The notes beneath the pieces are model-generated. The model was not told the DNA's origin and ran no database searches. It saw only the letters and a list, made by a program, of their open reading frames with translations. Of a DNA stretch of 64,000 bases, positions 5,212 to 55,764 are shown in pieces; the first letter of the stretch is position 1, and each line of letters begins with the position of its first letter. Position numbers and translations under genes: made by a program. The stretch spans positions 26,265-90,264 of the forward strand of contig CABZMN010000002.1 in NCBI GenBank assembly GCA_902526825.1, read 5' to 3'. This DNA comes from an uncultured Candidatus Actinomarina sp. Lineage in GTDB: Bacteria > Actinomycetota > Acidimicrobiia > Actinomarinales > Actinomarinaceae.

Positions 5212-5244
5212 CCATACTTATAGATATACTCTTTATAACGAGCA

Positions 5245-5400
5245 ATATAGCGCCTGGCCTTTAACGAGGTGACGAGGAAGTATGTTATCGAAAAATTCGG
5301 CGGATGCATACTCGGCTCTGCAGTCGATATAAATTGTTTAAAAACAGAAAAAAATTTCTGAACAGAGACAATTTAAAGCAGTCTTTATTTTAACCTGCTC
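5245..5400 (+). ncRNA. glmS ribozyme: glmS ribozyme (GlcN6P-dependent self-cleaving riboswitch) in the glmS 5' UTR
   Basis: Conserved core read directly: A^GCGCC (cleavage between A5249 and G5250), GACGAGG (5271-5277), P2 arms GUAUG (5280-5284) / CAUAC (5307-5311) enclosing UUAUCGAA...UUCGGCGGAUG. Peripheral domain: AAAUUGU (5331-5337) / ACAAUUU (5368-5374) around hairpin CAGAAA (5345-5350) / UUUCUG (5355-5360). Ends just upstream of the glmS ATG at 5418. Confidence 0.82.
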
Positions 5401-12841: not shown

Positions 12842-12860
12842 AACATACATTTTTTAAAAA

Positions 12861-12891
12861 AAAGAGTGGACAACGTCCACTCTTTTTTTTT
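12861..12891 (+). terminator. rho-independent terminator after groEL
   Basis: Perfect stem AAAGAGTGGAC (12861-12871) / GTCCACTCTTT (12875-12885), 3-nt loop, followed by a T-run. Starts 20 nt after the groEL TAA. Confidence 0.8.
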
Positions 12892-12904
12892 ATCATTAGT
12901 TGTC

Positions 12905-13246
12905 ATGAATGGAATTAGAGGAGCAATTGCTACAGTAGAAAACACAGAAAACGATATATTAAAATCTACAAAAGAATTATTTAATACGATTGTAGAAAAT
13001 AACAACCTTGATATTTCAAAAATTGTTTCTGTAATTTTTACTGTTACTGATGATCTTGACGCCGCTTTCCCAGCAAAGGCTCTCAGAGAACTTGGTCACC
13101 ATCAATTATCTGCAATTGATACAAAAGCACCAAAAGTAATTAATGACCTTGAAGGTTGTATAAGAGCTTTAGTTACTTACAAGGATGAAATTGATGTAAC
13201 TCATACCTATATAGGTGAAGCTAAGAATTTAAGACCAGATAGATAA
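12905..13246 (+). CDS. aroH: monofunctional chorismate mutase, AroH class
   Basis: MNGIRGAIATVENTENDILKSTKELF...DLDAAFPAKALREL...CIRALV...NLRPD aligns by eye along its length with my recollection of Bacillus subtilis AroH (MMIRGIRGATTVE...FPAKAVREL...CIRVM...LRPD). I place the start at ATG 12905, because the ORF-track start at 12866 lies inside the groEL terminator stem. Confidence 0.85.
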   Translation: MNGIRGAIATVENTENDILKSTKELFNTIVENNNLDISKIVSVIFTVTDDLDAAFPAKALRELGHHQLSAIDTKAPKVINDLEGCIRALVTYKDEIDVTHTYIGEAKNLRPDR

Positions 13247-13287
13247 AAACTATTTGCAAATCTGTAATACATGGTATTATTACCACA

Positions 13288-13329
13288 ATGAAAATTAACA
13301 CATACTTTTACTTTAGAGCGCACATATAA
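13288..13329 (+). CDS. candidate aromatic-amino-acid leader peptide MKINTYFYFRAHI (13 aa)
   Basis: ATG 13288 to TAA 13327-13329 encodes Tyr-Phe-Tyr-Phe in 4 consecutive codons (13303-13314). Lies between aroH and the DAHP synthase gene and is followed by an intrinsic terminator. No obvious SD, but a -10-like TATTAT (13275-13280) sits 7 nt upstream, so a leaderless start is possible. Confidence 0.45.
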   Translation: MKINTYFYFRAHI

Positions 13330-13353
13330 GCTGCCCTAAAGTAACGTTATGTC

Positions 13354-13381
13354 AAATCGGGCAAAAGCCCGATTTTTTTTT
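13354..13381 (+). terminator. attenuator terminator upstream of the DAHP synthase gene
   Basis: Stem AAATCGGGC (13354-13362) / GCCCGATTT (13367-13375), AAAA loop, then a T-run to 13381. It lies immediately 5' of the AGGAGG RBS (13382-13387) and TTG start (13394) of the first shikimate gene. A terminator here only makes sense as a regulatory element. Confidence 0.7.
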
Positions 13382-13393
13382 AGGAGGAACAAA

Positions 13394-14413
13394 TTGATCG
13401 TAGTAATGAAGCAAGCTGCTTCTGAGGAAGACATTGAAAAGGTAAAGGCAAAGGCAATTGAACAAGGTCATGAGCCAAAAGTTCTTTATGGAGTTGAAAG
13501 GACTGTAGTTGCTGTCCATGGAAAGGTAATTGAGGATAATCGTGGAGTTATGCGATTGTTAGATAACGTTCATCAGGTTATTCCAATCGGAAGATCTTAC
13601 AAGCTTGCAAGTAAAACCTATAAAGAATCAAACACAGAAGTAAAAATCAAAGATTTAGTTGTGGGAGGTAAAGAACTTGCATTTATAGCAGGGCCAGATA
13701 GCGCAGAATATCAAGAACAAACGTTAGAAACAGCTGAAGCTGTTGTTCAAGCTGGAGGAAATGGATTAAGAGGTGGTGCGTTCAAACCAAGAACCTCTCC
13801 ATACAGTTTTCAAGGTCTTGGTGAAGAAGGTCTTGTATTGCTTAAAGAAGCTGCAGATTTACATAATTTACCATTATTCAGTGAAATTATGGATGTTCAG
13901 CATCTTGAGATGATGGAAAAATATGTTGATGTACTTCAAATCGGAGCAAGAAATATGCAAAACTTTAAACTCTTGGAAGCTGTTGGAGAATCAAAACTTC
14001 CAGTTTTATTAAAAAGAGGAATGAGCGCAACCCTTGAAGAGCTACTATTAGCTTCCGAATATATCCTTACGAGAGGTAATGAAAATGTTATTTTATGTGA
14101 GAGAGGTATAAGAACCTTTGAGACAGCCACAAGAAATACTTTTGATATAAATGCTATTCCTTATTTGAAAATGAATACACATTTACCAGTTATTGCTGAT
14201 CCAAGCCATGGGACTGGAGCAAATAATTTAGTTGCTCCAATTGCTTTAGCAGCTATTGCTGCTGGAGCAGACGGTCTTCTTATTGAGATACATCCAAGGC
14301 CAGATGAAGCATTATGTGATGGGCCACAAGCTTTAACTCCACCAGAACTTATTGACTTAAGGAAAAAAGTAAGCTCAATGGCTGAAGTAGTTGGTAGGTC
14401 ATTGAAAACATGA
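13394..14413 (+). CDS. aroF: 3-deoxy-7-phosphoheptulonate (DAHP) synthase, type I-beta with N-terminal ferredoxin/ACT-like regulatory domain
   Basis: LIVVMKQAASEEDIEKVK... N-terminal domain and catalytic core ...LRGGAFKPRTSPYSFQGLGEEGL...IGARNMQNF...LLKRG...CERGIRTFE...ADPSH... match my recollection of Thermotoga maritima DAH7PS (MIVVLKPG...). TTG 13394 sits 6 nt after AGGAGG. The ORF-track ATG 13349 would read through the terminator hairpin. Confidence 0.9.
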   Translation: MIVVMKQAASEEDIEKVKAKAIEQGHEPKVLYGVERTVVAVHGKVIEDNRGVMRLLDNVHQVIPIGRSYKLASKTYKESNTEVKIKDLVVGGKELAFIAGPDSAEYQEQTLETAEAVVQAGGNGLRGGAFKPRTSPYSFQGLGEEGLVLLKEAADLHNLPLFSEIMDVQHLEMMEKYVDVLQIGARNMQNFKLLEAVGESKLPVLLKRGMSATLEELLLASEYILTRGNENVILCERGIRTFETATRNTFDINAIPYLKMNTHLPVIADPSHGTGANNLVAPIALAAIAAGADGLLIEIHPRPDEALCDGPQALTPPELIDLRKKVSSMAEVVGRSLKT

Positions 14414-15243
14414 TTAAAAAGGTAAAAATAATTGGCCTTGGATTGATGGGTGCGAATCTTGGAATCAATTTAAAAAATAAAGGTATAGATGTTTTTGGTC
14501 AAGACGTTGATAAGGAAGCAGAAAATAGGGCTGAAAAATATGGTATTGATACACAATCTAAAGAGGAAAGTTATGATGTGACGGTTCTATCTATGCCGAT
14601 AAATAATATTATGTCATTTTTATCAGAAGGTAATGAAATTGATGACTCAAAATTATTAATTGATATTGGTGGTACTAAAGAATCAATTTGTAATCTTATG
14701 GATAACTTCAAAATACCTTCTGTTGGTGGCCATCCTTTGTGTGGTTTAGCTGATAATAGAAGTTGGGAACCTACACCAGAAATGTACGATGATGCAACAT
14801 TTTTACTCTGTGAAACAGAATCCATGAACGACAATTCAAAAAAAATTGCCAGAGATTTAGTAAACATATTGAACTGCAAAGAATTGTGGATAGATCGAAA
14901 AAAACATGATGAAATATTATCTATTACAAGTCATTTGCCACATTTAATAAGTTCAGCATTGGTTGGGATAGCTAAAAAAGATTATGAAATAGATGAAATT
15001 ATGGGTTTAGCAGCAGGTGGGTTTGATGGAGCAACAAGACTAACAAGAACAAATCCAGGAATGATAATAGACATGTACAACACAAACTCTGAAAATATAA
15101 ACAAATTTCTTATTTCACTAATTGATGAGATATCTTCATTAATGTCACTTCAGGAGAAAAATCAATTATTAGAATACCTTACCTCGTCAGTTGAGTGGAG
15201 AAGAGCTTTATCAGAAAAGTTTGGAGAGAGACCATTAAGTTGA
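14410..15243 (+). CDS. tyrA: prephenate (or arogenate) dehydrogenase
   Basis: N-terminal Rossmann motif KIIGLGLMGANLG, ...VGGHPLCG..., ...SHLPHLISSAL... typical of the TyrA family. 4-nt overlap with the DAHP synthase stop. Confidence 0.85.
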   Translation: MIKKVKIIGLGLMGANLGINLKNKGIDVFGQDVDKEAENRAEKYGIDTQSKEESYDVTVLSMPINNIMSFLSEGNEIDDSKLLIDIGGTKESICNLMDNFKIPSVGGHPLCGLADNRSWEPTPEMYDDATFLLCETESMNDNSKKIARDLVNILNCKELWIDRKKHDEILSITSHLPHLISSALVGIAKKDYEIDEIMGLAAGGFDGATRLTRTNPGMIIDMYNTNSENINKFLISLIDEISSLMSLQEKNQLLEYLTSSVEWRRALSEKFGERPLS

Positions 15244-16514
15244 AAATAATTAATCGTGGGTTATCTGGAACAGTTCAAGTGATAGGAGATAAATCTATAT
15301 CGCATAGAGCAATTTTGTTTTCTGCTCTAGCTGAGGGCACATCTGTAGTTAAGAATTTATTAATAAGTGAAGATACAAAAGCCTCTTTAAAAATCGTTGA
15401 ACAAATGGGGGTTGATGTAAAAATCGAGGATAAAGTTTCTATAACTGGTAAGGGAATAAATGGATTAAATAAACCAAAAAATGAACTTGATGCCAAGAAT
15501 TCTGGAACAACTGCTAGATTGCTTATCGGATTATTATCTAAACAAAAATTTTCTTCAACATTAATTGGTAGCACTCAATTAAACAAAAGACCAATGAATA
15601 GAATTACTAATTTATTGGTTGGTCATGGAGCTGATATAAAAATAAAAAACAAGTTTTTACCAATAAACTTTAATCCAAAAGAATACTCATTCAGTTTTCA
15701 AAATACTAAAGTACCAAGTGCCCAAGTCAAAAGCGCATTAATCCTTGCTTCTCTATATCATAATGAACCTACCCTTATTGAAGAAACCGTTTCCACCAGA
15801 GACCATACTGAGAGAATGCTTGTAGCTATGGGTGTGGATATATTGAGGCTTGGAAATACATTAACTGTCCCACCAACAACTAAGTTAGAACCATTGAACA
15901 TTAATATTCCTGGCGATATATCATCAGGTGCTTTTTTAATTGCTCTCGGTTTATTAAGAGGTAAAGAAATAATTCTTTCCAACATGTTAATTAATGAAAG
16001 AAGACTGGGATTTATAAAAGTCTTAAAAAGAATGAAAGCAAAAATTGAGATCTTAAATATTAGAGAAGAAAACAATGAAGTAATAGGTGATATAAAAATA
16101 AATAAGTCAATACTTAATGGAACAACAGTTAGCAAAGACGAAATTCCCGATTTAATAGACGAAATTCCAATTTTTACTTTACTTGCCTCACAAGCCAAAG
16201 GATTGACAAAAGTAGTTGGTGCGGAAGAGCTAAAAGTTAAAGAATCAAATAGATTAGATGCGATGAAAAATTTCATTCTTAATTTAGGTGGTCAAATTAA
16301 GTTGCTTGATGATGGGTTTGAGATTCAAGGTATCCAAAAATTAAAAAAAGGAAATATTGAAACACTTGATGATCATAGAATCGCTATGACAGCAATTGTT
16401 GCAAACATAGGACTCAATAAAAAAATAATTCCAGATAATTTTGAGTGTATAAATGATTCTTATCCTTCTTTTTTTGAAGATATAAAACTATTAGGAGGTG
16501 AAATAAATGAGTAA
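15195..16514 (+). CDS. aroA: 3-phosphoshikimate 1-carboxyvinyltransferase (EPSP synthase)
   Basis: ...GTVQVIGDKSISHRAILFSALAEG..., ...NSGTTARLL..., ...RDHTERML..., ...LKVKESNRLDAM..., ...DDHRIAM.... The true start may be TTG 15240, which overlaps the tyrA TGA, rather than ATG 15195. Confidence 0.92.
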   Translation: MEKSFIRKVWRETIKLKIINRGLSGTVQVIGDKSISHRAILFSALAEGTSVVKNLLISEDTKASLKIVEQMGVDVKIEDKVSITGKGINGLNKPKNELDAKNSGTTARLLIGLLSKQKFSSTLIGSTQLNKRPMNRITNLLVGHGADIKIKNKFLPINFNPKEYSFSFQNTKVPSAQVKSALILASLYHNEPTLIEETVSTRDHTERMLVAMGVDILRLGNTLTVPPTTKLEPLNINIPGDISSGAFLIALGLLRGKEIILSNMLINERRLGFIKVLKRMKAKIEILNIREENNEVIGDIKINKSILNGTTVSKDEIPDLIDEIPIFTLLASQAKGLTKVVGAEELKVKESNRLDAMKNFILNLGGQIKLLDDGFEIQGIQKLKKGNIETLDDHRIAMTAIVANIGLNKKIIPDNFECINDSYPSFFEDIKLLGGEINE

Positions 16515-17295
16515 TTATGGAATTATTGGATGGCCACTCGAAAAAACTTATTCTCCAGTTATTCAGAACTATTTGTTTAATATGAACAATCTGGATAGTA
16601 AATATGAGCCATTTAAAATTGAGAATTTAACAGCAGAATCAGTAGATACATTAATAACTGATCTTGATGGATTTAATATAACAATTCCACACAAAGAAAA
16701 AATACTTAATTTAGATATAAATTTTACTATTGATGAACATGTCCAAAAAATAGGATCTACGAACACTGTAAGAAGAACAGACGATAAAATTGAACTTTTC
16801 AATACTGACTTTGAAGGTTTTACACTATTTTTGAAAAAAATTGGATATGATTTGAATAAAAAAAATATATTAATCTTGGGAAGTGGTGGAAGTTCAAAAG
16901 CAATTAAATATGCTTTATCAACTCATAAAACAAAAACTTATGTTGTAAGTAGAAATCAAACTGATGAGACAATTTCATATATAAATGCAAAAGAACTTGC
17001 TCCTGAAATTGATTTAGTGATTAATACTACACCAGTTGGGATGTCTCATTTATCCTCGGCATCACTTGATTTAGATACAAATCAATTTACAAATCTAGAA
17101 TTATTTTTAAATATTGGATATGGTTATAAAAATTCTTTTTTTGAAAAATTTATTTCAGAATTTGAGTCCTACGATGGTACAGGGATGCTTATCTGCCAAG
17201 CAGTATTGTCTTTTAACATTTGGACAAATCTTAACTTACAAGTTTTAGATATATATGATGAGTTATACAAATTACTAGAAAGTCAAAATGATTAG
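16507..17295 (+). CDS. aroE: shikimate dehydrogenase
   Basis: YGIIGWPLEKTYSPVIQN...GFNITIPHKE...GSTNTV...NTDFEGF...ILGSGGSSKA... is the AroE signature. Confidence 0.88.
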   Translation: MSNYGIIGWPLEKTYSPVIQNYLFNMNNLDSKYEPFKIENLTAESVDTLITDLDGFNITIPHKEKILNLDINFTIDEHVQKIGSTNTVRRTDDKIELFNTDFEGFTLFLKKIGYDLNKKNILILGSGGSSKAIKYALSTHKTKTYVVSRNQTDETISYINAKELAPEIDLVINTTPVGMSHLSSASLDLDTNQFTNLELFLNIGYGYKNSFFEKFISEFESYDGTGMLICQAVLSFNIWTNLNLQVLDIYDELYKLLESQND

Positions 17296-18466
17296 ATTCT
17301 TAACAGCCGGTGAAAGCCATGGGCCTGAGTTAACAGGCATCATTGAAGGCCTACCTGCTGGATTTCACGTTACAAAAGACTATATTGATAGTTTTCTCAA
17401 AAGAAGACAAAAAAGCCTAGGTTCAGGTGGAAGAATGAATATTGAGAGTGATGAAGTTGAGATAACCTCAGGAATAATAAACAATTTAACTACTGGCGGG
17501 CCAATCACATTAAAAATTAAAAATAATGATTGGAAAAATTGGAAAGATAAAGATATTGAACCTTATGTAGTACCAAGACCTGGACATGCTGACTTGATAG
17601 GAACTGCAAAATATAATAGTTCGGACATCAGATTAGTACTTGAAAGATCAAGTGCGAGGGAAACAGCTATGAGATGTGCTCTAGGAGCAATAGCGGCTCA
17701 AATTTTAGAAAGTTTTGAAATCAATATTTGTGGATATGTTTCTAGCATTGGAAAAGTTGATTATGTTCAAGAAAAAATAATTGATTTACAAGAACTACAA
17801 TCAAAAGTCACCCAATCGCCTGTATCTTGTCCAGATGAAAAATCTGGGAAAGATATGGAGAATGAGATACTAGAAGCAAGAAAAAAGAAAGATACTCTTG
17901 GTGGATCAATCACAACAATAGCATCTAGAGTACCTCCTACATTAGGAAGCTTTGTACATTGGGATAGAAAGTTAGATGCAAATCTAGCCAGAATATTTAT
18001 GTCAATACAAAGTGTAAAAGCTGTTGAAATAGGCAATGGAATAGAAGCTTCAAAAAACTTTGGAACAGATGTTCAAGATCAATATGTTTTACAAGATGGA
18101 TCTATCAAAAAAGAATCCAATAATCTTGGAGGTTTTGAAGGTGGTATGACTAATGGAGAAGAAATTATAGTTAAAGCATATTTAAAACCAATTAGTACGA
18201 CATTAACTCCGATAAAAAGCGTAAATTTATCATCAAAGGATGAAACAGAGACAGTTTACGAACGTTCAGATACATGTGCGGTACCAAGGGCTGTCCCAAT
18301 TTTTGAAAGTGCAATGGCATTTGAAATTTTAAGAAACTTATTACTTAAAACTGGAGGGGACAGCAAAAAAGAAATTGTAAAAAACTTTAATAGTATTTCA
18401 AAATTGAATGTTGATGATTTTGACATGGACAATCAGACTTGGAAAATGAACTATGAAACAGAATAA
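17288..18466 (+). CDS. aroC: chorismate synthase
   Basis: MIRFLTAGESHGPELTGIIEGLPAG...RRQ...GRM..E.D...RPGHADL...ERSSARETA... are the chorismate synthase signatures. Confidence 0.95.
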   Translation: MIRFLTAGESHGPELTGIIEGLPAGFHVTKDYIDSFLKRRQKSLGSGGRMNIESDEVEITSGIINNLTTGGPITLKIKNNDWKNWKDKDIEPYVVPRPGHADLIGTAKYNSSDIRLVLERSSARETAMRCALGAIAAQILESFEINICGYVSSIGKVDYVQEKIIDLQELQSKVTQSPVSCPDEKSGKDMENEILEARKKKDTLGGSITTIASRVPPTLGSFVHWDRKLDANLARIFMSIQSVKAVEIGNGIEASKNFGTDVQDQYVLQDGSIKKESNNLGGFEGGMTNGEEIIVKAYLKPISTTLTPIKSVNLSSKDETETVYERSDTCAVPRAVPIFESAMAFEILRNLLLKTGGDSKKEIVKNFNSISKLNVDDFDMDNQTWKMNYETE

Positions 18467-18962
18467 TATCTATTTAGTTGGATTCATGGGTTCTGGTAAA
18501 ACATCGATCCTCAAAAAAATAAAACAGATAGTAAATGTAAATACATTTGACCTAGATGAAAATATTGAAAAAAAATATGGAAGTATAAATAAAATCTTTC
18601 AAACAAAAAGTGAAAAATATTTTCGTAATATTGAACTTAAAACTTTTGAAGCATTGCCAAATAATGATTCCGTAATTGCTCTTGGAGGAGGTTCTCTTGA
18701 GGTCTCACATATTCTTGATGAGGTCAAAAATTCAGAACTTAGTTTTTATCTAAAAGATACATTTGAAAATTTATGGAAAAGAATTTCAAATTCAGAGCGT
18801 CCGCTTGTAAAAAAAGGTAAAGAGGAGATATTAGAACTTTATAGATTGCGTGAAAATTTGTATAGCCAGTCAAAACATACTATCGATATCAAAAATAAAA
18901 AAGAGAAAATAATAGTGGAAACAATTATTCAAAATACGTGGTTAAAAAATGAAGTTATCTGA
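18453..18962 (+). CDS. aroK: shikimate kinase
   Basis: IYLVGFMGSGKTS Walker A, ...FRNIELKTFE..., ...ALGGGS.... Small size and position in the aro cluster. Confidence 0.85.
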   Translation: MKQNNIYLVGFMGSGKTSILKKIKQIVNVNTFDLDENIEKKYGSINKIFQTKSEKYFRNIELKTFEALPNNDSVIALGGGSLEVSHILDEVKNSELSFYLKDTFENLWKRISNSERPLVKKGKEEILELYRLRENLYSQSKHTIDIKNKKEKIIVETIIQNTWLKNEVI

Positions 18963-19950
18963 AATAGATTACTCAAATAACTTTAATGATCTATATATAG
19001 ATCTAAAAAATTATATAAATACTAATAATCATGTGGTATTTCTTGACTCTAATCTTTCATCAATTTTTAACCCAGATGAGAATTTAAATATTTTTAAAAT
19101 TGATATAAATGAATCAACCAAGGACTTAGAGACTATACAAAAGCTCTGGGCAATTATGTTTGATCAATCTTTAGATAGAAATTCTAAAGTTATTGGGATT
19201 GGTGGAGGTGTACTTACTGATTTAGTGGGTTTTGCAACCAGTACGTTCAAACGTGGTGCAAAACTATGTTTAATACCGTCGACGTTGCTTGGGATGGTAG
19301 ATGCAGCTCATGGAGGTAAGAATGGTTTTAACAACGACTATGGTAAAAATCAGATTGGAACCTTCTTTATTCCAGAAAAAATATTGATTTGCTCAGAATT
19401 TTTAGATTCCCTTTCTGAAAATGAACTTAATAATGGAATAATTGAATCCATTAAGGCTGGCTTTTTATGGGATAGAACAATACTTGAGTTGATATATGTT
19501 GATGATTTTATGAAAAATATCGATGAAATAATAAAAAAAAGTGTAAAAGTGAAAAATAGTATATTACACAATGATATTGAAGAAAGTAATGAAAGAATGT
19601 TTCTAAATTTAGGACATACAATAGGACACCTAATTGAAAAAGATTCGGATTACAGTGTTTCCCATGGACAGGCTGTAGCTATTGGAATTCTTAAAGGCCT
19701 TGAAATAGCTGAGACTAAGTACCATCTTGATAATAATGTGAAACATCAGTTTGAAGATTTTTTGAATAAAAAATCACTAAAAACAAATTATAAATTTTTA
19801 AATGATAACAATTATCTAAAAGAGATAATTTCAAATGATAAGAAAGTATCAAATGACATAATTAAGTTCGTATTAATAGAAGATATTGAGAAACCTATTT
19901 TGATTGATTTACACATAAACGATCTTTTGGAGGTTTTAATTAATGGGTAA
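18949..19950 (+). CDS. aroB: 3-dehydroquinate synthase
   Basis: ...IGIGGGVLTDLVGFATSTFKRGAKLCLIPSTLLGMVDAAHGGKNG...LNLGHTIGHLIE...SHGQAVAIG... shows the DHQS NAD- and metal-binding motifs. Confidence 0.88.
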   Translation: MKLSEIDYSNNFNDLYIDLKNYINTNNHVVFLDSNLSSIFNPDENLNIFKIDINESTKDLETIQKLWAIMFDQSLDRNSKVIGIGGGVLTDLVGFATSTFKRGAKLCLIPSTLLGMVDAAHGGKNGFNNDYGKNQIGTFFIPEKILICSEFLDSLSENELNNGIIESIKAGFLWDRTILELIYVDDFMKNIDEIIKKSVKVKNSILHNDIEESNERMFLNLGHTIGHLIEKDSDYSVSHGQAVAIGILKGLEIAETKYHLDNNVKHQFEDFLNKKSLKTNYKFLNDNNYLKEIISNDKKVSNDIIKFVLIEDIEKPILIDLHINDLLEVLING

Positions 19951-20374
19951 AATTGTAATCATCAATGGTCCAAATTTAAATTTTCTTGGGCAAAGAGAAA
20001 TTGATAAATATGGAACAACTACTTATAAGGAATTAATTTCTGAACTTGAAGACTACACAAACAATCAAGATAAATTAATTTTTTATCAATCCAATCATGA
20101 GGGAGAAATATGTGAATTTATCCAAAATATTTTCAATAATGAAGCGATTGACGGTTTGATAATTAATCCTGGTGGATATACTCACACAAGTGTGGCAATA
20201 AGAGATTCATTACTACTTCTAAATTTACCTATCGTGGAAGTACATATGACAGATATTAGAAAGAGGGAAAACTTTAGAAAAACAAATTTAATTCACGATG
20301 TATGTGAAGAGTCATTTGTAGGTTTAGGTATTGATGGTTACAAAAAAGGAATTGATTATATAAATGAAAAATGA
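19943..20374 (+). CDS. aroQ: type II 3-dehydroquinate dehydratase
   Basis: IVIINGPNLNFLGQREIDKYG...QSNHEGEI...IINPGGYTHTSVAIRD...PIVEVHMTDI.. is the AroQ signature. Confidence 0.93.
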   Translation: MGKIVIINGPNLNFLGQREIDKYGTTTYKELISELEDYTNNQDKLIFYQSNHEGEICEFIQNIFNNEAIDGLIINPGGYTHTSVAIRDSLLLLNLPIVEVHMTDIRKRENFRKTNLIHDVCEESFVGLGIDGYKKGIDYINEK

Positions 20375-21179
20375 AAAAATTTTTTACCAGGGATCAAAAG
20401 GCTCATACTCTGAATCTGTATTATTAGAATTATTTCCAGATTACGAATTAGTCTCTTGCAAAACCTTTCAGGAGGTCTCTAAAAATACGACTCAAGAAGG
20501 TTTTGGGCTTTTGCCAGTTGAAAATTCTCTTGTTGGAACAGTAATAGAAGCTTATGAAAGTTTAATTGAAAACAATTTAGAAATATATTTAGAGATTAAA
20601 AAGAAGATAAACCATGCCCTCATTGGTATTAAAGGAACAAAAAAAGAAGATATAAAAAAAGTTATATCTCATCCACAAGCACTCCAACAATGTAGTAAAT
20701 ATTTAAATGATTTAGATGTTGAACTACAACCAGTGTTTGATACTGCAGGAAGTGTAATTAGTTTATTAGAGACTAAATCAATTGATATTGGGGCTATAGC
20801 AGGTGATCATTTTGATAATGATGAAAGATTTACAATAATTGAGAAAAATATATCTAATCACGAAGAAAATTACACAAGATTTTTTTTGACAGGAAAAAAA
20901 CCACTCAAAATTTCTGAAGAAAAAAATATTCGCTCTGCAATTCTTGTAGCAGCGGATGAGCCTGGCTCCTTACTTAAGGCTTTAACTGTGTTCGATGTTC
21001 TTAAATTAAATCTTATAAAATTAGAATCAAGACCAATTCTGGGGTCTCCTTGGGAATATAAGTTTTACGTAGATTATCAGAATAATGACATAAAAATTGA
21101 CCAACTTTTAATGGATAATCTTAGCCAAGTAGCCAAAGAATTTAAAATTTTGGGTGAATACGGATCAATTAATCTTTAA
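20364..21179 (+). CDS. pheA: prephenate dehydratase (PDT plus ACT domain, no fused chorismate mutase)
   Basis: ...YQGSKGSYSE...LPVENSLVGTV...SHPQALQQC...NYTRFF... and a C-terminal ACT region ...PGSLLKALTVF...LNLIKLESRP.... Confidence 0.9.
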   Translation: MKNEKIFYQGSKGSYSESVLLELFPDYELVSCKTFQEVSKNTTQEGFGLLPVENSLVGTVIEAYESLIENNLEIYLEIKKKINHALIGIKGTKKEDIKKVISHPQALQQCSKYLNDLDVELQPVFDTAGSVISLLETKSIDIGAIAGDHFDNDERFTIIEKNISNHEENYTRFFLTGKKPLKISEEKNIRSAILVAADEPGSLLKALTVFDVLKLNLIKLESRPILGSPWEYKFYVDYQNNDIKIDQLLMDNLSQVAKEFKILGEYGSINL

Positions 21180-22254
21180 ACTTCCAGCTGGAAGAATTCC
21201 TATCATCTTCAATTTCTATATTTGATTCTGTAAGAAAATCTCTGACGATATCTGATTCTTCATATTTTTGAGATGATCTAAGTTCTATACGGTAAGAAAT
21301 TAATTTATTGATTAAATTATTTATATTTTCTGAATTTTTATTATTCTTTTCAATTTCCAGTCTTAATTCAGCTATTTCTTTTCTTAAAACATCTTCAATT
21401 TGTTCATCTTGAGAATTTTGATCATTGTCAGCACGTGCTTTAATTTGTTTTGTTTCAGTATTTTCTAATAACTTTCTAAGATCATCTAAACTATATTTTT
21501 CACCATTCTTAAAGTTTTGAGTTTCATTTTGATTAATGACAGTGACTTGTCCTAACCCTTCAACTTCAAAAAGATTTTCTTTTGCATCAATTATAAGAGC
21601 TGTATGTTCATCAATTCCTAATATATTAGTTGGTTGAATCTCTTGTAGAATTTCCATTCTTTTAGCACCAAGATAACTTATGCTCGTGTCATGGTTTCCA
21701 CCTTCTTTATTATTAAAGTGTGGAACAACTACACAATCAATATCAAAAACTTCAAGAAGATTTATACCTTTCTCCCAGTAGGGGTCAATCCCAACCTTGT
21801 ATATTTCATAGACTGGAATTGTTCTAATACCTAAAGTTGATGCTGCTGCACTGGCAAAAATTAAACTACTTCCAGAGCAAAGTCTCTCTTTAAAAATTTC
21901 TGGTACATCTGTATCTATCCAATTTTTTGTTGCGTAGCTTGGACTACCTGGTCCCGAAAATATAAAATTTGAACTTTGAATTTTTTTTATAAACTCAAAG
22001 TATTCAACTGATTTAAAATACTTTTTATTTCTAAAGCTAGCCAAGTTTATTTCTAAATTAAGACTTACATCATAAAATTCAATCAATTTATCAACTAACT
22101 GATCAGCATTTTCTTGAAATCCAAAAGGCGTATCTATTAAGGAAGCAATTACTTCACCATCAATTTTATTTATTAAATTTCTATGTACAGAAACTAAATT
22201 AGGACTTGTTTCTCCAGAACCAAGTATTGCAATTGAACCATTTACTTCTTGCAT
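21169..22254 (-). CDS. uncharacterised protein: peptidase-S51/class-I-amidotransferase-like N-domain, coiled-coil linker, CysRS-C-terminal-like tail
   Basis: The N-terminal ~240 aa (IAILGSGETSP...FSGPGSPSY...IFASAAAS...VVPHFNN) looks like the flavodoxin-like S51/cyanophycinase fold. The acidic/Lys-rich middle suggests coiled coil. The last ~45 aa (...LRSSQKYEESDIVRDFLTESNIEIEDDRNSSSWKF) resemble the conserved C-terminal tail of cysteinyl-tRNA synthetases (...AR.aKd...AD.IRd.L...Gi.leDt..Gt.W). Assigned by eye only. Confidence 0.5.
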   Translation of the reverse strand: MQEVNGSIAILGSGETSPNLVSVHRNLINKIDGEVIASLIDTPFGFQENADQLVDKLIEFYDVSLNLEINLASFRNKKYFKSVEYFEFIKKIQSSNFIFSGPGSPSYATKNWIDTDVPEIFKERLCSGSSLIFASAAASTLGIRTIPVYEIYKVGIDPYWEKGINLLEVFDIDCVVVPHFNNKEGGNHDTSISYLGAKRMEILQEIQPTNILGIDEHTALIIDAKENLFEVEGLGQVTVINQNETQNFKNGEKYSLDDLRKLLENTETKQIKARADNDQNSQDEQIEDVLRKEIAELRLEIEKNNKNSENINNLINKLISYRIELRSSQKYEESDIVRDFLTESNIEIEDDRNSSSWKFKD

Positions 22255-31191: not shown

Positions 31192-33324
31192 ATGAATAAA
31201 TTAAAACCACTTCCTGAAGAATGGTCAGGATTACTAAATAATGAACAAAAAGAAGCGATTGAAAATATTAATGGTCCTTTACTCATTATTGCTGGGGCAG
31301 GTTCAGGTAAAACAAGAGTCTTAACTTACAGATATGCACATTTAATAAAAACATATGGGATAAATTTTGAAAATGTGTTGGCTATTACATTTACAAATAA
31401 AGCTGCAAATGAAATGAAAGATAGAATAAGTGATTTACTAAATCTTGAGCTGTCTCCGAAATGGATATCTACGTTTCATAGTCTTTGTGTCAAAATGTTA
31501 AGAATACATGGCCATCTGATTGGCTTTAATAATAATTTTACTATTTACGACCAAAGCGACTCTACAAAATTAGTTCGTAATTGTATGCGAGATTCTGATA
31601 TTGACACAAAACAATATTCTCCAAAAAGAATACAAGCACATATCTCATCTTTAAAAAATCAAAGGATCTTACCTGGAGAAGCTGTTGAATTTGCACAATC
31701 GTTTTTTGATGTAAAAGTCGCAGAGATTTATTCATCGTATCAGAAAAAACTTATGCTAGCTAACTCAATGGATTTTGATGACTTACTAATTAAAGCAGTA
31801 GAACTTCTTGAGACAAGTGACAAGTCCCTAAATTACTGGTCTTCAAAATTTCAATACATAATGATTGACGAGTATCAAGATACTAATATGGTGCAATATC
31901 GTCTTGTTGAACTACTTGCATCAAAACACAAGAATATCTGTGTTGTTGGGGATTCTGATCAAAGCATATATGCATTTAGGGGTGCGGATATTAGAAATAT
32001 TGAAGAGTTTGAAAGTGACTTTAAGAATGCAAAAGTTATATCTTTAGAAAAAAATTATAGGTCTTCCCAAAAAATTTTAGATATTGCAAATGCAGTAATT
32101 TCTAACAATCCAAGAAAAAAAGATAAAAAATTATGGACTGATAATGACGAAGGATTAGATGTAAATTTAGTTGAATTCAATTCTGAAAGAGATGAATCAA
32201 GATGGATAGCTGAACATATAAATAAACTTTTAGAAGATAAAGCGTTTACTGAAATTGCTATTTTTTATAGAACAAATAATCAATCAAGACTCTTTGAAGA
32301 AGAGTTAAGAAAATTAAGTTTAAGTTATAAGGTTGTTGGTAATGTGAGATTTTACGACAGGAAAGAGATTAAAGATATTCTTGCATATTTAAATTACTTA
32401 ATAAACCCTGAGGATACAGTCTCATTTGAGAGAATATTAAATGTCCCCAAAAGAGGAATTGGGGAGTCAACACTTCAGAAGTTAAGAGATTACGCAAACA
32501 AAAATGAGATTTCTTTATCAAAATCTATAGAAAATCTAGATGAAATCAATAATTTATCTGACAGGGTAAAAAAACAAATAAATAATTTCAAAGAGATAGT
32601 TAATGACTTGAAATCCTTTGCATTGCAGGGCCCTTCAGAAACAATTTCAAAAACTTTAGAATTAACAGGCTACAAAGATGAATTAGTTAAAGAAGGAACT
32701 TTAGACTCTCAAATGAGATTGGAAAATCTTGATGAATTACTTACTTCAGCATTTGAATTTGAAAATTTATACGAAGAAGACATAGAAGATCCATTTACAG
32801 TTCTAAGAGACTATTTAGAATCAATCGCACTTTTCACAGATTCAGACGATGTAGACAAAGAAGATAGAATTCTGCTAATGACCCTTCATAATGCTAAAGG
32901 ATTGGAGTTCCCGGTAGTATTCATGACTGGGATGGAGGAAAACATATTTCCTAGTCAAAGATCTGAAACTGATTTTGAAATACAAGAAGAAAGAAGACTT
33001 TGTTATGTTGGGATGACGAGGGCTGAAAAAAAGCTTTATTTAACATATTCAAATACCAGAACTATGTGGGGAGGAACAAATTATTATCTCCCAAGCAGAT
33101 TCATCGATGAAGCTAAACCCTATTTGAAAGAAATTAAAATTCATCAAGAATCAACCGATAACAAAAGTAATTCTGTAGGTTCTCTCGGAAAGAAAGTGAT
33201 ACATGAAAAATATGGTTCGGGAATTGTTGAAGAAGTGAATGGTAATGAGATTACAGTTAACTTTGGTAGAGAGCATGGAATCAAACATTTAGATATTGAA
33301 TGGGCCCCAATAATATTTGAATGA
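31192..33324 (+). CDS. pcrA: ATP-dependent DNA helicase PcrA/UvrD (SF1)
   Basis: LLIIAGAGSGKTRVLT (motif I), MIDEYQDTN (II), VGDSDQSIYAFRGA (III), NYRS (IV), TLHNAKGLEFPVVF (V), VGMTRAEKKLYL (VI). Confidence 0.93.
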   Translation: MNKLKPLPEEWSGLLNNEQKEAIENINGPLLIIAGAGSGKTRVLTYRYAHLIKTYGINFENVLAITFTNKAANEMKDRISDLLNLELSPKWISTFHSLCVKMLRIHGHLIGFNNNFTIYDQSDSTKLVRNCMRDSDIDTKQYSPKRIQAHISSLKNQRILPGEAVEFAQSFFDVKVAEIYSSYQKKLMLANSMDFDDLLIKAVELLETSDKSLNYWSSKFQYIMIDEYQDTNMVQYRLVELLASKHKNICVVGDSDQSIYAFRGADIRNIEEFESDFKNAKVISLEKNYRSSQKILDIANAVISNNPRKKDKKLWTDNDEGLDVNLVEFNSERDESRWIAEHINKLLEDKAFTEIAIFYRTNNQSRLFEEELRKLSLSYKVVGNVRFYDRKEIKDILAYLNYLINPEDTVSFERILNVPKRGIGESTLQKLRDYANKNEISLSKSIENLDEINNLSDRVKKQINNFKEIVNDLKSFALQGPSETISKTLELTGYKDELVKEGTLDSQMRLENLDELLTSAFEFENLYEEDIEDPFTVLRDYLESIALFTDSDDVDKEDRILLMTLHNAKGLEFPVVFMTGMEENIFPSQRSETDFEIQEERRLCYVGMTRAEKKLYLTYSNTRTMWGGTNYYLPSRFIDEAKPYLKEIKIHQESTDNKSNSVGSLGKKVIHEKYGSGIVEEVNGNEITVNFGREHGIKHLDIEWAPIIFE

Positions 33325-37960: not shown

Positions 37961-37990
37961 GAAAAGACGGCATAGCCGTCTTTTCTTTTT
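37961..37990. terminator. bidirectional rho-independent terminator between hup (+) and the sdh-SCP2 operon (-)
   Basis: Stem GAAAAGACGGC (37961-37971) / GCCGTCTTTTC (37975-37985), loop ATA. A T-run follows on the + strand, and the complementary U-rich tract serves the - strand. Confidence 0.75.
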
Positions 37991-55687: not shown

Positions 55688-55764
55688 CGCGGGGTGGAGC
55701 AGTCTGGTAGCTCGCTGGGCTCATAACCCAGAGGTCGTAGGTTCAAATCCTACCCCCGCTACCA
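55688..55764 (+). tRNA. metZ: initiator tRNA-fMet (anticodon CAT), CCA encoded
   Basis: Folded by hand: acceptor CGCGGGG/CCCCGCU with a C1xU72 mismatch, D-stem GAGC/GCUC (A11:U24), anticodon stem CUGGG/CCCAG with three consecutive G:C pairs, loop CUCAUAA, T-arm GUAGG-UUCAAAU-CCUAC, 3' ACCA. Near-identical in layout to E. coli tRNA-fMet. Confidence 0.95.

Follow-up and report, generated by a model that had tools for sequence, protein, structure and literature searches.

Candidatus Actinomarina (Actinomarinales, Acidimicrobiia), an actinobacterium abundant in the sea and still uncultured, has a tiny, streamlined genome of approximately 33% GC, and the locus considered here raises the question of how such an organism controls its synthesis of phenylalanine and tyrosine. 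In a 64,000-nucleotide stretch of one such genome (contig CABZMN010000002.1, referred to below as the window, whose positions are used throughout; features lie on the forward strand unless stated otherwise), the short interval between aroH and the gene for 3-deoxy-D-arabino-heptulosonate 7-phosphate (DAHP) synthase contains a 13-codon open reading frame (ORF) with a run of tyrosine and phenylalanine codons, followed by an intrinsic terminator that stands directly in front of the nine-gene aromatic biosynthesis operon. A first-pass annotation of the window took this interval for a ribosome-mediated attenuator of the shikimate operon. Comparison with approximately 50 related loci supports that reading through the conservation of the ORF, the promoter, and the RNA fold, and the element is probably a leader-peptide transcription attenuator of the trpL/pheL/aroR type, controlling all nine genes of the Phe/Tyr–shikimate operon.

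The related loci come from two Actinomarinales clades and encode DAHP synthases that are 72–99% identical. Querying a genome collection with the DAHP synthase of the window yielded approximately 45 Actinomarinales loci with protein identities of 73% or more, including eight (L001–L007 and L023) that are 98–99% identical to the window. The best 120 matches of a protein search with the same query were all at least 75% identical, so that no intermediate lineages were gained; clade B (L037 and L139–L145) was instead obtained by a further protein search, seeded with L037 as the most divergent locus, together with contig look-ups. In clade B, the gene order is that of the window—that is, groEL, aroH, leader, DAHP synthase, and tyrA. 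The distinct sequences comprise 31 clade A and 5 clade B leaders (approximately 36 variants) and 35 promoter variants. Column-by-column pairing counts were made on a fixed-column alignment (A2), and counts for the GCCC motif and the antiterminator on 27 distinct sequences.

A conserved aromatic leader ORF

The leader ORF (MKINTYFYFRAHI, 13 codons and a stop) extends from the ATG at 13288 to the end of the UAA at 13327–13329, and the consecutive codons UAC UUU UAC UUU (Tyr-Phe-Tyr-Phe) at 13303–13314 constitute the proposed stall site. Both the ORF and its aromatic run, first noticed by the annotation, are read in the sequence at these positions and are conserved in frame across the related loci of both clades. 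The ATG is invariant across all loci. Codons 2–5 diverge (KINT, KTNT, KLNNT, KLNNV, KTVTT, KMNNS, and others), with length changing by 3 nucleotides (nt) or whole codons only. The aromatic run takes the form YFYF, FFYF, or YFFYF, giving four or five aromatic codons, of which the final Phe-Tyr-Phe never varies, and the run changes only synonymously (UAC/UAU) or by replacement of Tyr with Phe, a step from UAC to UUU that requires two substitutions. Because the first two aromatic codons are located in the unpaired internal loop of hairpin P1 (described below), RNA pairing cannot account for their conservation. The stop codon may be UAA, UAG, or UGA (the last in L143), at a constant position, and in every variant 0–3 nt separate it from the invariant GCCC that follows; in L037, it is shifted by one codon (GAHIK and then the stop), its G being the G of GCCC. 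Thus, the geometry by which a terminating ribosome would mask GCCC is found whichever stop codon is used.

A short ORF of this kind is not in itself conspicuous. ATG-initiated mini-ORFs with at least four consecutive aromatic codons number 8 on the two strands of the window, where Markov shuffles give 4.7 ± 2.6, and the remaining 7 lie inside or antisense to genes; as such mini-ORFs are not rare in an AT-rich window, the significance of the leader rests on its position and conservation rather than on the ORF alone. With respect to position, 48 DAHP synthase genes of other taxa, which served as negative controls, had no adjacent aromatic mini-ORF in their upstream regions.

Several further features of the ORF were observed. 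At the C-terminus of the peptide, (A/E)-H-I-stop is retained although its codons vary synonymously (GCG/GCA, CAC/CAU, and AUA/AUU), a conservation that falls outside the attenuation model and may reflect selection on the RNA or on the peptide and its release context. The leader Tyr codon, UAC, is the minor one in 13 neighboring genes (TAT 65, TAC 23). In the second leader UAC, the C has a G of the P1 3′ arm as its pairing partner, and UAU is used by some relatives.

An extended −10 promoter and a probable leaderless start

The promoter assigned to the leader by the annotation, TTGCAA (13254–13259) with TATTAT (13275–13280), is present, and the −10 is moreover an extended one, TGgTATTAT (13272–13280), located 7 nt upstream of the leader ATG. 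For the −35-like hexamer, a scan prefers TTTGCA at 13253–13258, with a 16-nt spacer. Among relatives, TGnTAnnnT occurs in all 35 distinct promoter variants. Its distance from the ATG is 7 nt in most of them (29), five variants have 8 nt, and a single one has 6 nt. A TTG(C/G/T)(A/C)A-like −35 motif is also retained, with spacer sequences otherwise variable. A Shine–Dalgarno (SD)-like motif (GGAG, GAGG, or AGGA) is absent from the 20 nt preceding the ATG in each of the 35 variants, in contrast to the DAHP synthase gene with its AGGAGG. Furthermore, the 5′ end of the RNA is unpaired for its first 6–16 nt in every fold, and for at least 7 nt in all but L037. The invariant extended −10 at 6–8 nt from an ATG that is preceded by no SD-like motif supports the suggestion of a leaderless mRNA: the first transcribed base is very probably the A of ATG 13288 or one of its immediate neighbors, and the leader ORF would be translated by leaderless initiation. 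Leaderless mRNAs make up 33% of the transcripts of Corynebacterium glutamicum (PMC3890552), and the ilvB leader peptide of that species is described in PMC4046766, with reference to Morbach (2000), as having no ribosome-binding site (RBS).

Hairpin P1 and the terminator

In silico folding of 13287–13385, a check proposed with the annotation, gave two adjacent hairpins as both the minimum free energy (MFE) and the centroid structure: P1, corresponding to the 1:2 pairing of classical attenuators, and, one base after it, an intrinsic terminator, corresponding to 3:4. P1 (13300–13352) consists of an outer stem (13300–13304/13348–13352), an internal loop, and a 9-bp inner stem (13308–13316/13336–13344), with the leader stop codon in the apical loop. 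The complementarity of UACUUUAG (13309–13316) and CUAAAGUA (13336–13343) is as had been claimed, and the MFE helix is larger than that noted. In the window and likewise in all relatives, the 5′ arm of P1 (13300–13316 in the window) overlaps the aromatic codons. The terminator (13354–13381) is formed by a 9-bp stem, AAAUCGGGC/GCCCGAUUU, with the loop AAAA and a U9 tail; recognized in the first reading, it was recovered by both a terminator scan and the MFE fold, and abuts the RBS of the DAHP synthase gene. With a conserved promoter on one side of the terminator and, 1 nt on, an RBS on the other, the operon can be expressed by read-through only.

The folding energy of the leader is −29.9 kcal/mol, compared with −13.7 ± 3.0 for dinucleotide shuffles (z = −5.35), with none of 200 shuffles as good, and the fold z-scores of 14 representative leaders range from −3.1 to −7.0. 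The architecture of P1 plus terminator is present in per-sequence folds of all 31 distinct clade A leaders and of all clade B leaders. The outer stems differ by lineage yet pair in each: ACAUA/UAUGU, ACACA/UGUGU, ACAAUAC/GUAUUGU, ACAACGUA/UACGUUGU, GAACAC/GUGUUU, and UUGAACA/UGUUCAA. RNAalifold, applied to a MAFFT alignment, recovered the inner stem and the terminator only; it misses the outer stem because stem registers differ between lineages, which is why per-sequence folds were used instead. By the fixed-column count, 94.7% of inner-stem and terminator cells are paired; sliding the 3′ partners lowers this to 57% or less. Across relatives, the paired fraction is 89.7% for the inner stem and 99.6% for the terminator. 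Of the compensatory changes that had been proposed as a check, one was found in the terminator, where a U-A pair has become G-C in all of clade B. At pair 13315–13337 of the inner stem, clade A has A-U, L143 (and L145, by the fixed-column count) has G·U, and L037, L139, and L142 have G-C, the last three with a one-base register slip at the inner stem in their per-sequence folds. The apical loop of P1, GAGCACAUAUAAG (13318–13332), is also conserved in all relatives, an observation for which the attenuation model gives no explanation.

The candidate antiterminator and the proposed switch

The annotation proposed UGCCC (13332–13336), which lies 2 nt after the stop (its invariant GCCC at 3 nt) and inside the footprint of a terminating ribosome, and GGGCA (13359–13363), which is also within the 5′ arm of the terminator, as the strands of a 2:3 antiterminator. 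The stalled state was modeled with the ribosomal A site on the last aromatic codon, 12 nt downstream covered, and the transcript ending in the terminator loop. Under these conditions, the GCCC:GGGC pairing belongs to the MFE structure of the nascent RNA in every variant (31 of 31 in clade A and 5 of 5 in clade B), with 4–6 bp and energies of −5.5 to −10.7 kcal/mol. GCCC is invariant in all 27 distinct sequences, with neighboring bases varying, and the leader offers no alternative 2:3 pairing. The findpath barrier from antiterminator to terminator amounts to 10.8–11.6 kcal/mol; a barrier of approximately 11 kcal/mol, combined with the usual prefactor, would correspond to a lifetime of seconds, which in principle would be long enough.

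Two other pairings were considered and rejected. An extended antiterminator, GCU (13330–13332) with AGC (13366–13368) across an AAA bulge (−6.9 kcal/mol), is not borne out, as the variants GCU, GUU, and GUA do not track the loop variants AAAA, AAAG, and AAAU. The pairing of the conserved loop sequence ACAUAU with the outer 3′ arm, seen in the full-length stalled-state fold of the window, was dismissed as a general feature, being not conserved in the L012 group.

In the proposed mechanism, the extended −10 promoter would start the RNA at the A of ATG 13288, and the leader ORF would be read from a leaderless mRNA. With Phe and Tyr replete, charged tRNA-Phe and tRNA-Tyr would be plentiful, and the ribosome would reach the UAA at 13327–13329, its footprint masking UGCCC; the terminator would then form and the RNA would end at approximately 13381, 12 nt before the DAHP synthase start, giving a predicted terminated RNA that, counted through the last base of the U-tract, is 94 nt long. 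When either Phe or Tyr is limiting, the ribosome would stall on UAC UUU UAC UUU, holding the 5′ arm of P1, and the freed UGCCC would pair with GGGCA before the 3′ arm of the terminator is made, allowing RNA polymerase to read through. In a leader that is not translated, P1 would form and so would the terminator. This untranslated state is also that predicted for transcripts coming from aroH, in which the leader ATG is internal and has no SD sequence: a terminator scan gave none in the interval between aroH and the leader, so that aroH transcripts would reach the attenuator terminator, and the element would double as the terminator of aroH.

A number of observations weigh against this mechanism or against parts of it. 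Covariation in P1 and the terminator is thin, the support being mostly plain sequence conservation, and as the 3′ half of the aromatic run doubles as the P1 stem, its conservation is not independent evidence of coding. In two single-cell genomes, L035 and L036, AAA is replaced by UUU on the 3′ side of P1 (GCCCTTTAGTATG), a change that abolishes the inner stem. The antiterminator is a helix of 4–6 bp closing a loop of approximately 22 nt, at −6.7 kcal/mol compared with −13.7 kcal/mol for the terminator, and completion of the 3′ arm makes the terminator the more stable structure (−13.7 to −19 kcal/mol). Its flanking pairs are found in only 16–20 of the 27 sequences, and its covariation is zero because the four core pairs are invariant. 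Finally, among random 29-mers of the genome's composition, 22% pair with all of GGGC and 13.6% equal or exceed the pairing in stability, and thus the pairing in any single sequence does not exceed chance. Overall, the complementarity and its recurrence in the modeled stalled state stand, and UGCCC:GGGCA is favored, by a modest measure, as the specific antiterminator. In L035 and L036, P1 refolds with the first aromatic codons (ACAUACU/AGUAUGU), and these loci represent a natural variant that could reveal how much P1 is needed.

Other explanations of the leader

One alternative is that P1 is itself the sensor, with a protein or small ligand binding the hairpin and its loop GAGCACAUAUAAG and controlling the terminator, the mini-ORF being incidental or auxiliary. 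The apical loop and GCCC are indeed conserved beyond the needs of folding, part of the conservation of the aromatic codons, which double as stem bases, could be at the RNA level, and the weakness of the antiterminator leaves room for a helper factor. However, a sensor of this type leaves unexplained the invariant ATG at a leaderless distance from an invariant −10, the in-frame indels, the restriction of changes in the unpaired first two aromatic codons to Tyr and Phe, and the occurrence of three different stop codons at one position. Rfam also gave no relevant family in the whole window at the gathering score and none in 13100–13500 at E ≤ 10, and this applies to the amino-acid leader families (Phe, Trp, Leu, His, and Thr) as well. 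A T-box riboswitch, which has a specifier loop and the conserved T-box antiterminator sequence, was rejected on the same search (no T-box match at E ≤ 10) and on length, the leader being 94 nt compared with approximately 200 nt or more. A TRAP-type trp leader as in Bacillus, whose binding site has 9–11 (G/U)AG repeats at intervals of 2–3 nt that overlap the antiterminator, was rejected because 13288–13381 contains just one UAG, overlapping one GAG (13314–13318). It is considered unlikely that P1 acts as the sensor.

A role after transcription—with the mini-ORF serving as a translated upstream ORF that affects translation of the operon or stability of its mRNA, or with the 94-nt RNA or the 13-residue peptide acting in trans—appears very unlikely. 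The conservation of the C-terminal (A/E)-H-I-stop with synonymous changes would fit such a role, and an attenuated RNA of defined size would be abundant. Against this, the leader ends in a canonical terminator (9-bp GC-rich stem and U9) that leaves the RBS free, the N-terminal half of the very short peptide is variable, and nothing in the analysis indicates a target in trans.

That the hairpin and terminator are merely the 3′ end of aroH, with the aro operon expressed by constitutive leaky read-through and the mini-ORF arising by chance, is scarcely credible, for although no other terminator follows aroH and chance aromatic mini-ORFs occur at approximately 5–8 per 128 kb scanned, a conserved promoter with its −10 fixed 6–8 nt before the ATG lies between aroH and the terminator, the ORF, its frame, aromatic run, and stop position are kept in two clades while the promoter spacer and codons 2–5 diverge, and the 48 unrelated DAHP synthase genes have no comparable leader upstream.

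Relation to known leader-peptide attenuators

By analogy, the closest known system to the Actinomarina attenuator is aroR-aroF of C. glutamicum, an attenuator reportedly described by Neshat et al. in 2014. The aroF product of C. glutamicum is a DAHP synthase of a different subtype from the Actinomarina enzyme, which is of the ferredoxin-like N-terminal type. Cited in the annotation, the aroR leader proved to be real: PMC4046766 and PMC11802643 place a leader peptide containing Phe-Tyr-Phe upstream of aroF. According to these papers and to PMC3890552, the leader lies directly upstream of the DAHP synthase gene, ribosome stalling on its Phe/Tyr codons raises transcription, and read-through increases under Phe limitation. 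The two systems share the phylum, the position of the leader directly before the DAHP synthase gene, and the Phe-Tyr-Phe motif, which is the invariant core of all Actinomarinales variants. They differ in that the Actinomarina element belongs to another class, the Acidimicrobiia, and to a very different genome, and in that it would control nine genes, including tyrA and pheA, and also terminate aroH transcripts.

The pheL-pheA and pheM-pheST systems of Escherichia coli are characterized by a leader rich in Phe codons, alternative 1:2, 2:3, and 3:4 hairpins, and an intrinsic terminator before the first structural gene (PMC11802643), and the Actinomarina leader resembles them in its Phe codons, its proposed alternative hairpins, and the placement of its terminator before the structural gene. 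However, those leaders have an SD sequence and a 5′ untranslated region, sense Phe only, and form longer antiterminators, whereas the Actinomarina leader would be leaderless, with mixed Tyr and Phe codons and an antiterminator of 4–6 bp. With trpL, the E. coli paradigm, it would share the principle that a ribosome that has reached the stop codon covers segment 2 and thereby permits the terminator; in contrast, a different amino acid is sensed by trpL, there is no sequence similarity, and the Actinomarina element is, at 94 nt, much more compact. In the literature searched, no leader peptides or attenuators were described in Acidimicrobiia or Actinomarina, and a 2005 survey of actinobacterial RNA regulatory elements did not cover aro genes.

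A similar arrangement in high-GC Acidimicrobiia

A Tyr/Phe-rich mini-ORF before the DAHP synthase gene was also found in three loci from high-GC Acidimicrobiia (L055, L056, and L074), encoding MATRDYFGFLFTGPMPGPK, MAERYYFGFLFTGPSPGPK, and (M)SERYFFGFVFTGPRARAEGAR, respectively, each followed by a stop codon. The shared core is (R)-(D/Y)-Y-F-G-F-L-F-T-G-P, which in L074 reads RYFFGFVFTGP, and the L055 leader lies at approximately 2016–2170 of its own sequence. A hairpin, UACUUCGGC/GCCGAAGUA, has its 5′ arm in the codons UAC UUC GGC; it resembles the P1 stem UACUUUAG/CUAAAGUA of Actinomarina and is followed by a terminator-like hairpin and then the DAHP synthase gene. The high-GC leader differs from that of Actinomarina in its longer ORF, in having the stop codon in the 3′ arm of the hairpin, in its poor U-tract, and in a distance of approximately 10 nt from a −10-like hexamer to the ATG; in addition, nothing in the high-GC DAHP synthase matches the N-terminal ~73 residues of the enzyme encoded in the window. 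The L055 leader matched no amino-acid leader family of Rfam at E ≤ 10. A metagenome scan with the L055 DAHP synthase added one further member of the high-GC lineage, its other loci serving as negative controls. The high-GC leader may be homologous to that of Actinomarina or convergent with it; even an analogous leader there suggests that the arrangement may be widespread in the class Acidimicrobiia.

A broader proposal, advanced tentatively and with more doubt than confidence, is that the Actinomarina element is one of an old, unrecognized family of leaderless Phe-Tyr-Phe attenuators before DAHP synthase genes across the Actinomycetota, with candidates in Actinomarinales, in high-GC Acidimicrobiia, and possibly in the aroR of Corynebacterium, and that in Actinomarina it could have been reduced to a minimal 94-nt sensor of both Tyr and Phe charging that controls nine genes and terminates aroH.

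Flanking genes and other features of the window

As assigned by Pfam, the gene order around the leader is tsaD, groES, groEL, aroH, leader, and then the nine-gene aro operon (13394–21179), which comprises the genes for DAHP synthase, tyrA, aroA, aroE, aroC, aroK, aroB, aroQ, and pheA as ORFs that overlap or abut. The operon thus covers the whole common pathway together with tyrA and pheA, a content that fits a sensor of Tyr and Phe. The DAHP synthase has a ferredoxin-like N-terminal domain (FXD) followed by DAHP_synth_1. Its RBS, AGGAGG (13382–13387), and its TTG start at 13394 occupy 13382–13396, directly after the U-tract. The start listed by the ORF-calling program, ATG 13349, had been dismissed as an artefact, and this is borne out by the FXD domain, whose alignment begins with the first residue encoded from TTG 13394; orthologues start with ATG, TTG, or GTG at the equivalent position, and L026 and L034 have an in-frame stop 9–12 nt upstream of the DAHP synthase start.

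Upstream of the leader, aroH (12905–13246) encodes a type I chorismate mutase. Its Pfam CM_1 match begins at residue 14 of the listed ORF, which corresponds to ATG 12905. A strong, symmetric, bidirectional-looking terminator, AAAAAAAAGAGTGGAC-AAC-GTCCACTCTTTTTTTTT (12859–12891), overlaps the listed GTG start at 12866; since this terminator of groEL covers the GTG, the true start of aroH is ATG 12905. A TATCAT −10-like hexamer (12891–12896) lies 8 nt before this ATG, with no SD sequence there, and aroH may be leaderless as well.

At the far end of the operon, a 361-residue ORF on the reverse strand (21169–22254) is convergent with the aro genes, overlaps the 3′ end of pheA by 11 nt, and has no Pfam match at E ≤ 0.001. 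Elsewhere in the window, further strong terminators (at 37986, 51746, and 23066) stand at ordinary gene ends. A glmS ribozyme/riboswitch is present at 5238–5385 (Rfam, 90.1 bits against a gathering score of 37). A match to the Rfam family n00280 at 32956–33053 (67.0 bits against a threshold of 65.2) probably reflects conserved coding sequence rather than a small RNA, n00280 being a Clostridioides difficile small RNA inside a helicase gene. The sole tRNA of the window is a tRNA-Met (CAT) at 55688–55764.

Implications for Actinomarina and for aromatic attenuation

The attenuation mechanism proposed here is a classical one, the lineage is new and uncultured, and no principle is changed by the finding. 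Its interest lies in what it would add to the biology of these bacteria. In practical terms, two gene starts are corrected, that of the DAHP synthase gene to TTG 13394 and that of aroH to ATG 12905, and the two clades with their approximately 36 leader variants offer a clean comparative set for building an RNA family. With this attenuator, aromatic attenuation and leaderless leader peptides would be represented in a second class of actinobacteria besides that of Corynebacterium. For Actinomarina, it provides a concrete candidate regulatory element, through which one very compact RNA device could govern a whole amino-acid pathway, and the short transcript predicted to end at its terminator may serve, in marine metatranscriptomes, as a possible marker of Phe/Tyr limitation in situ.

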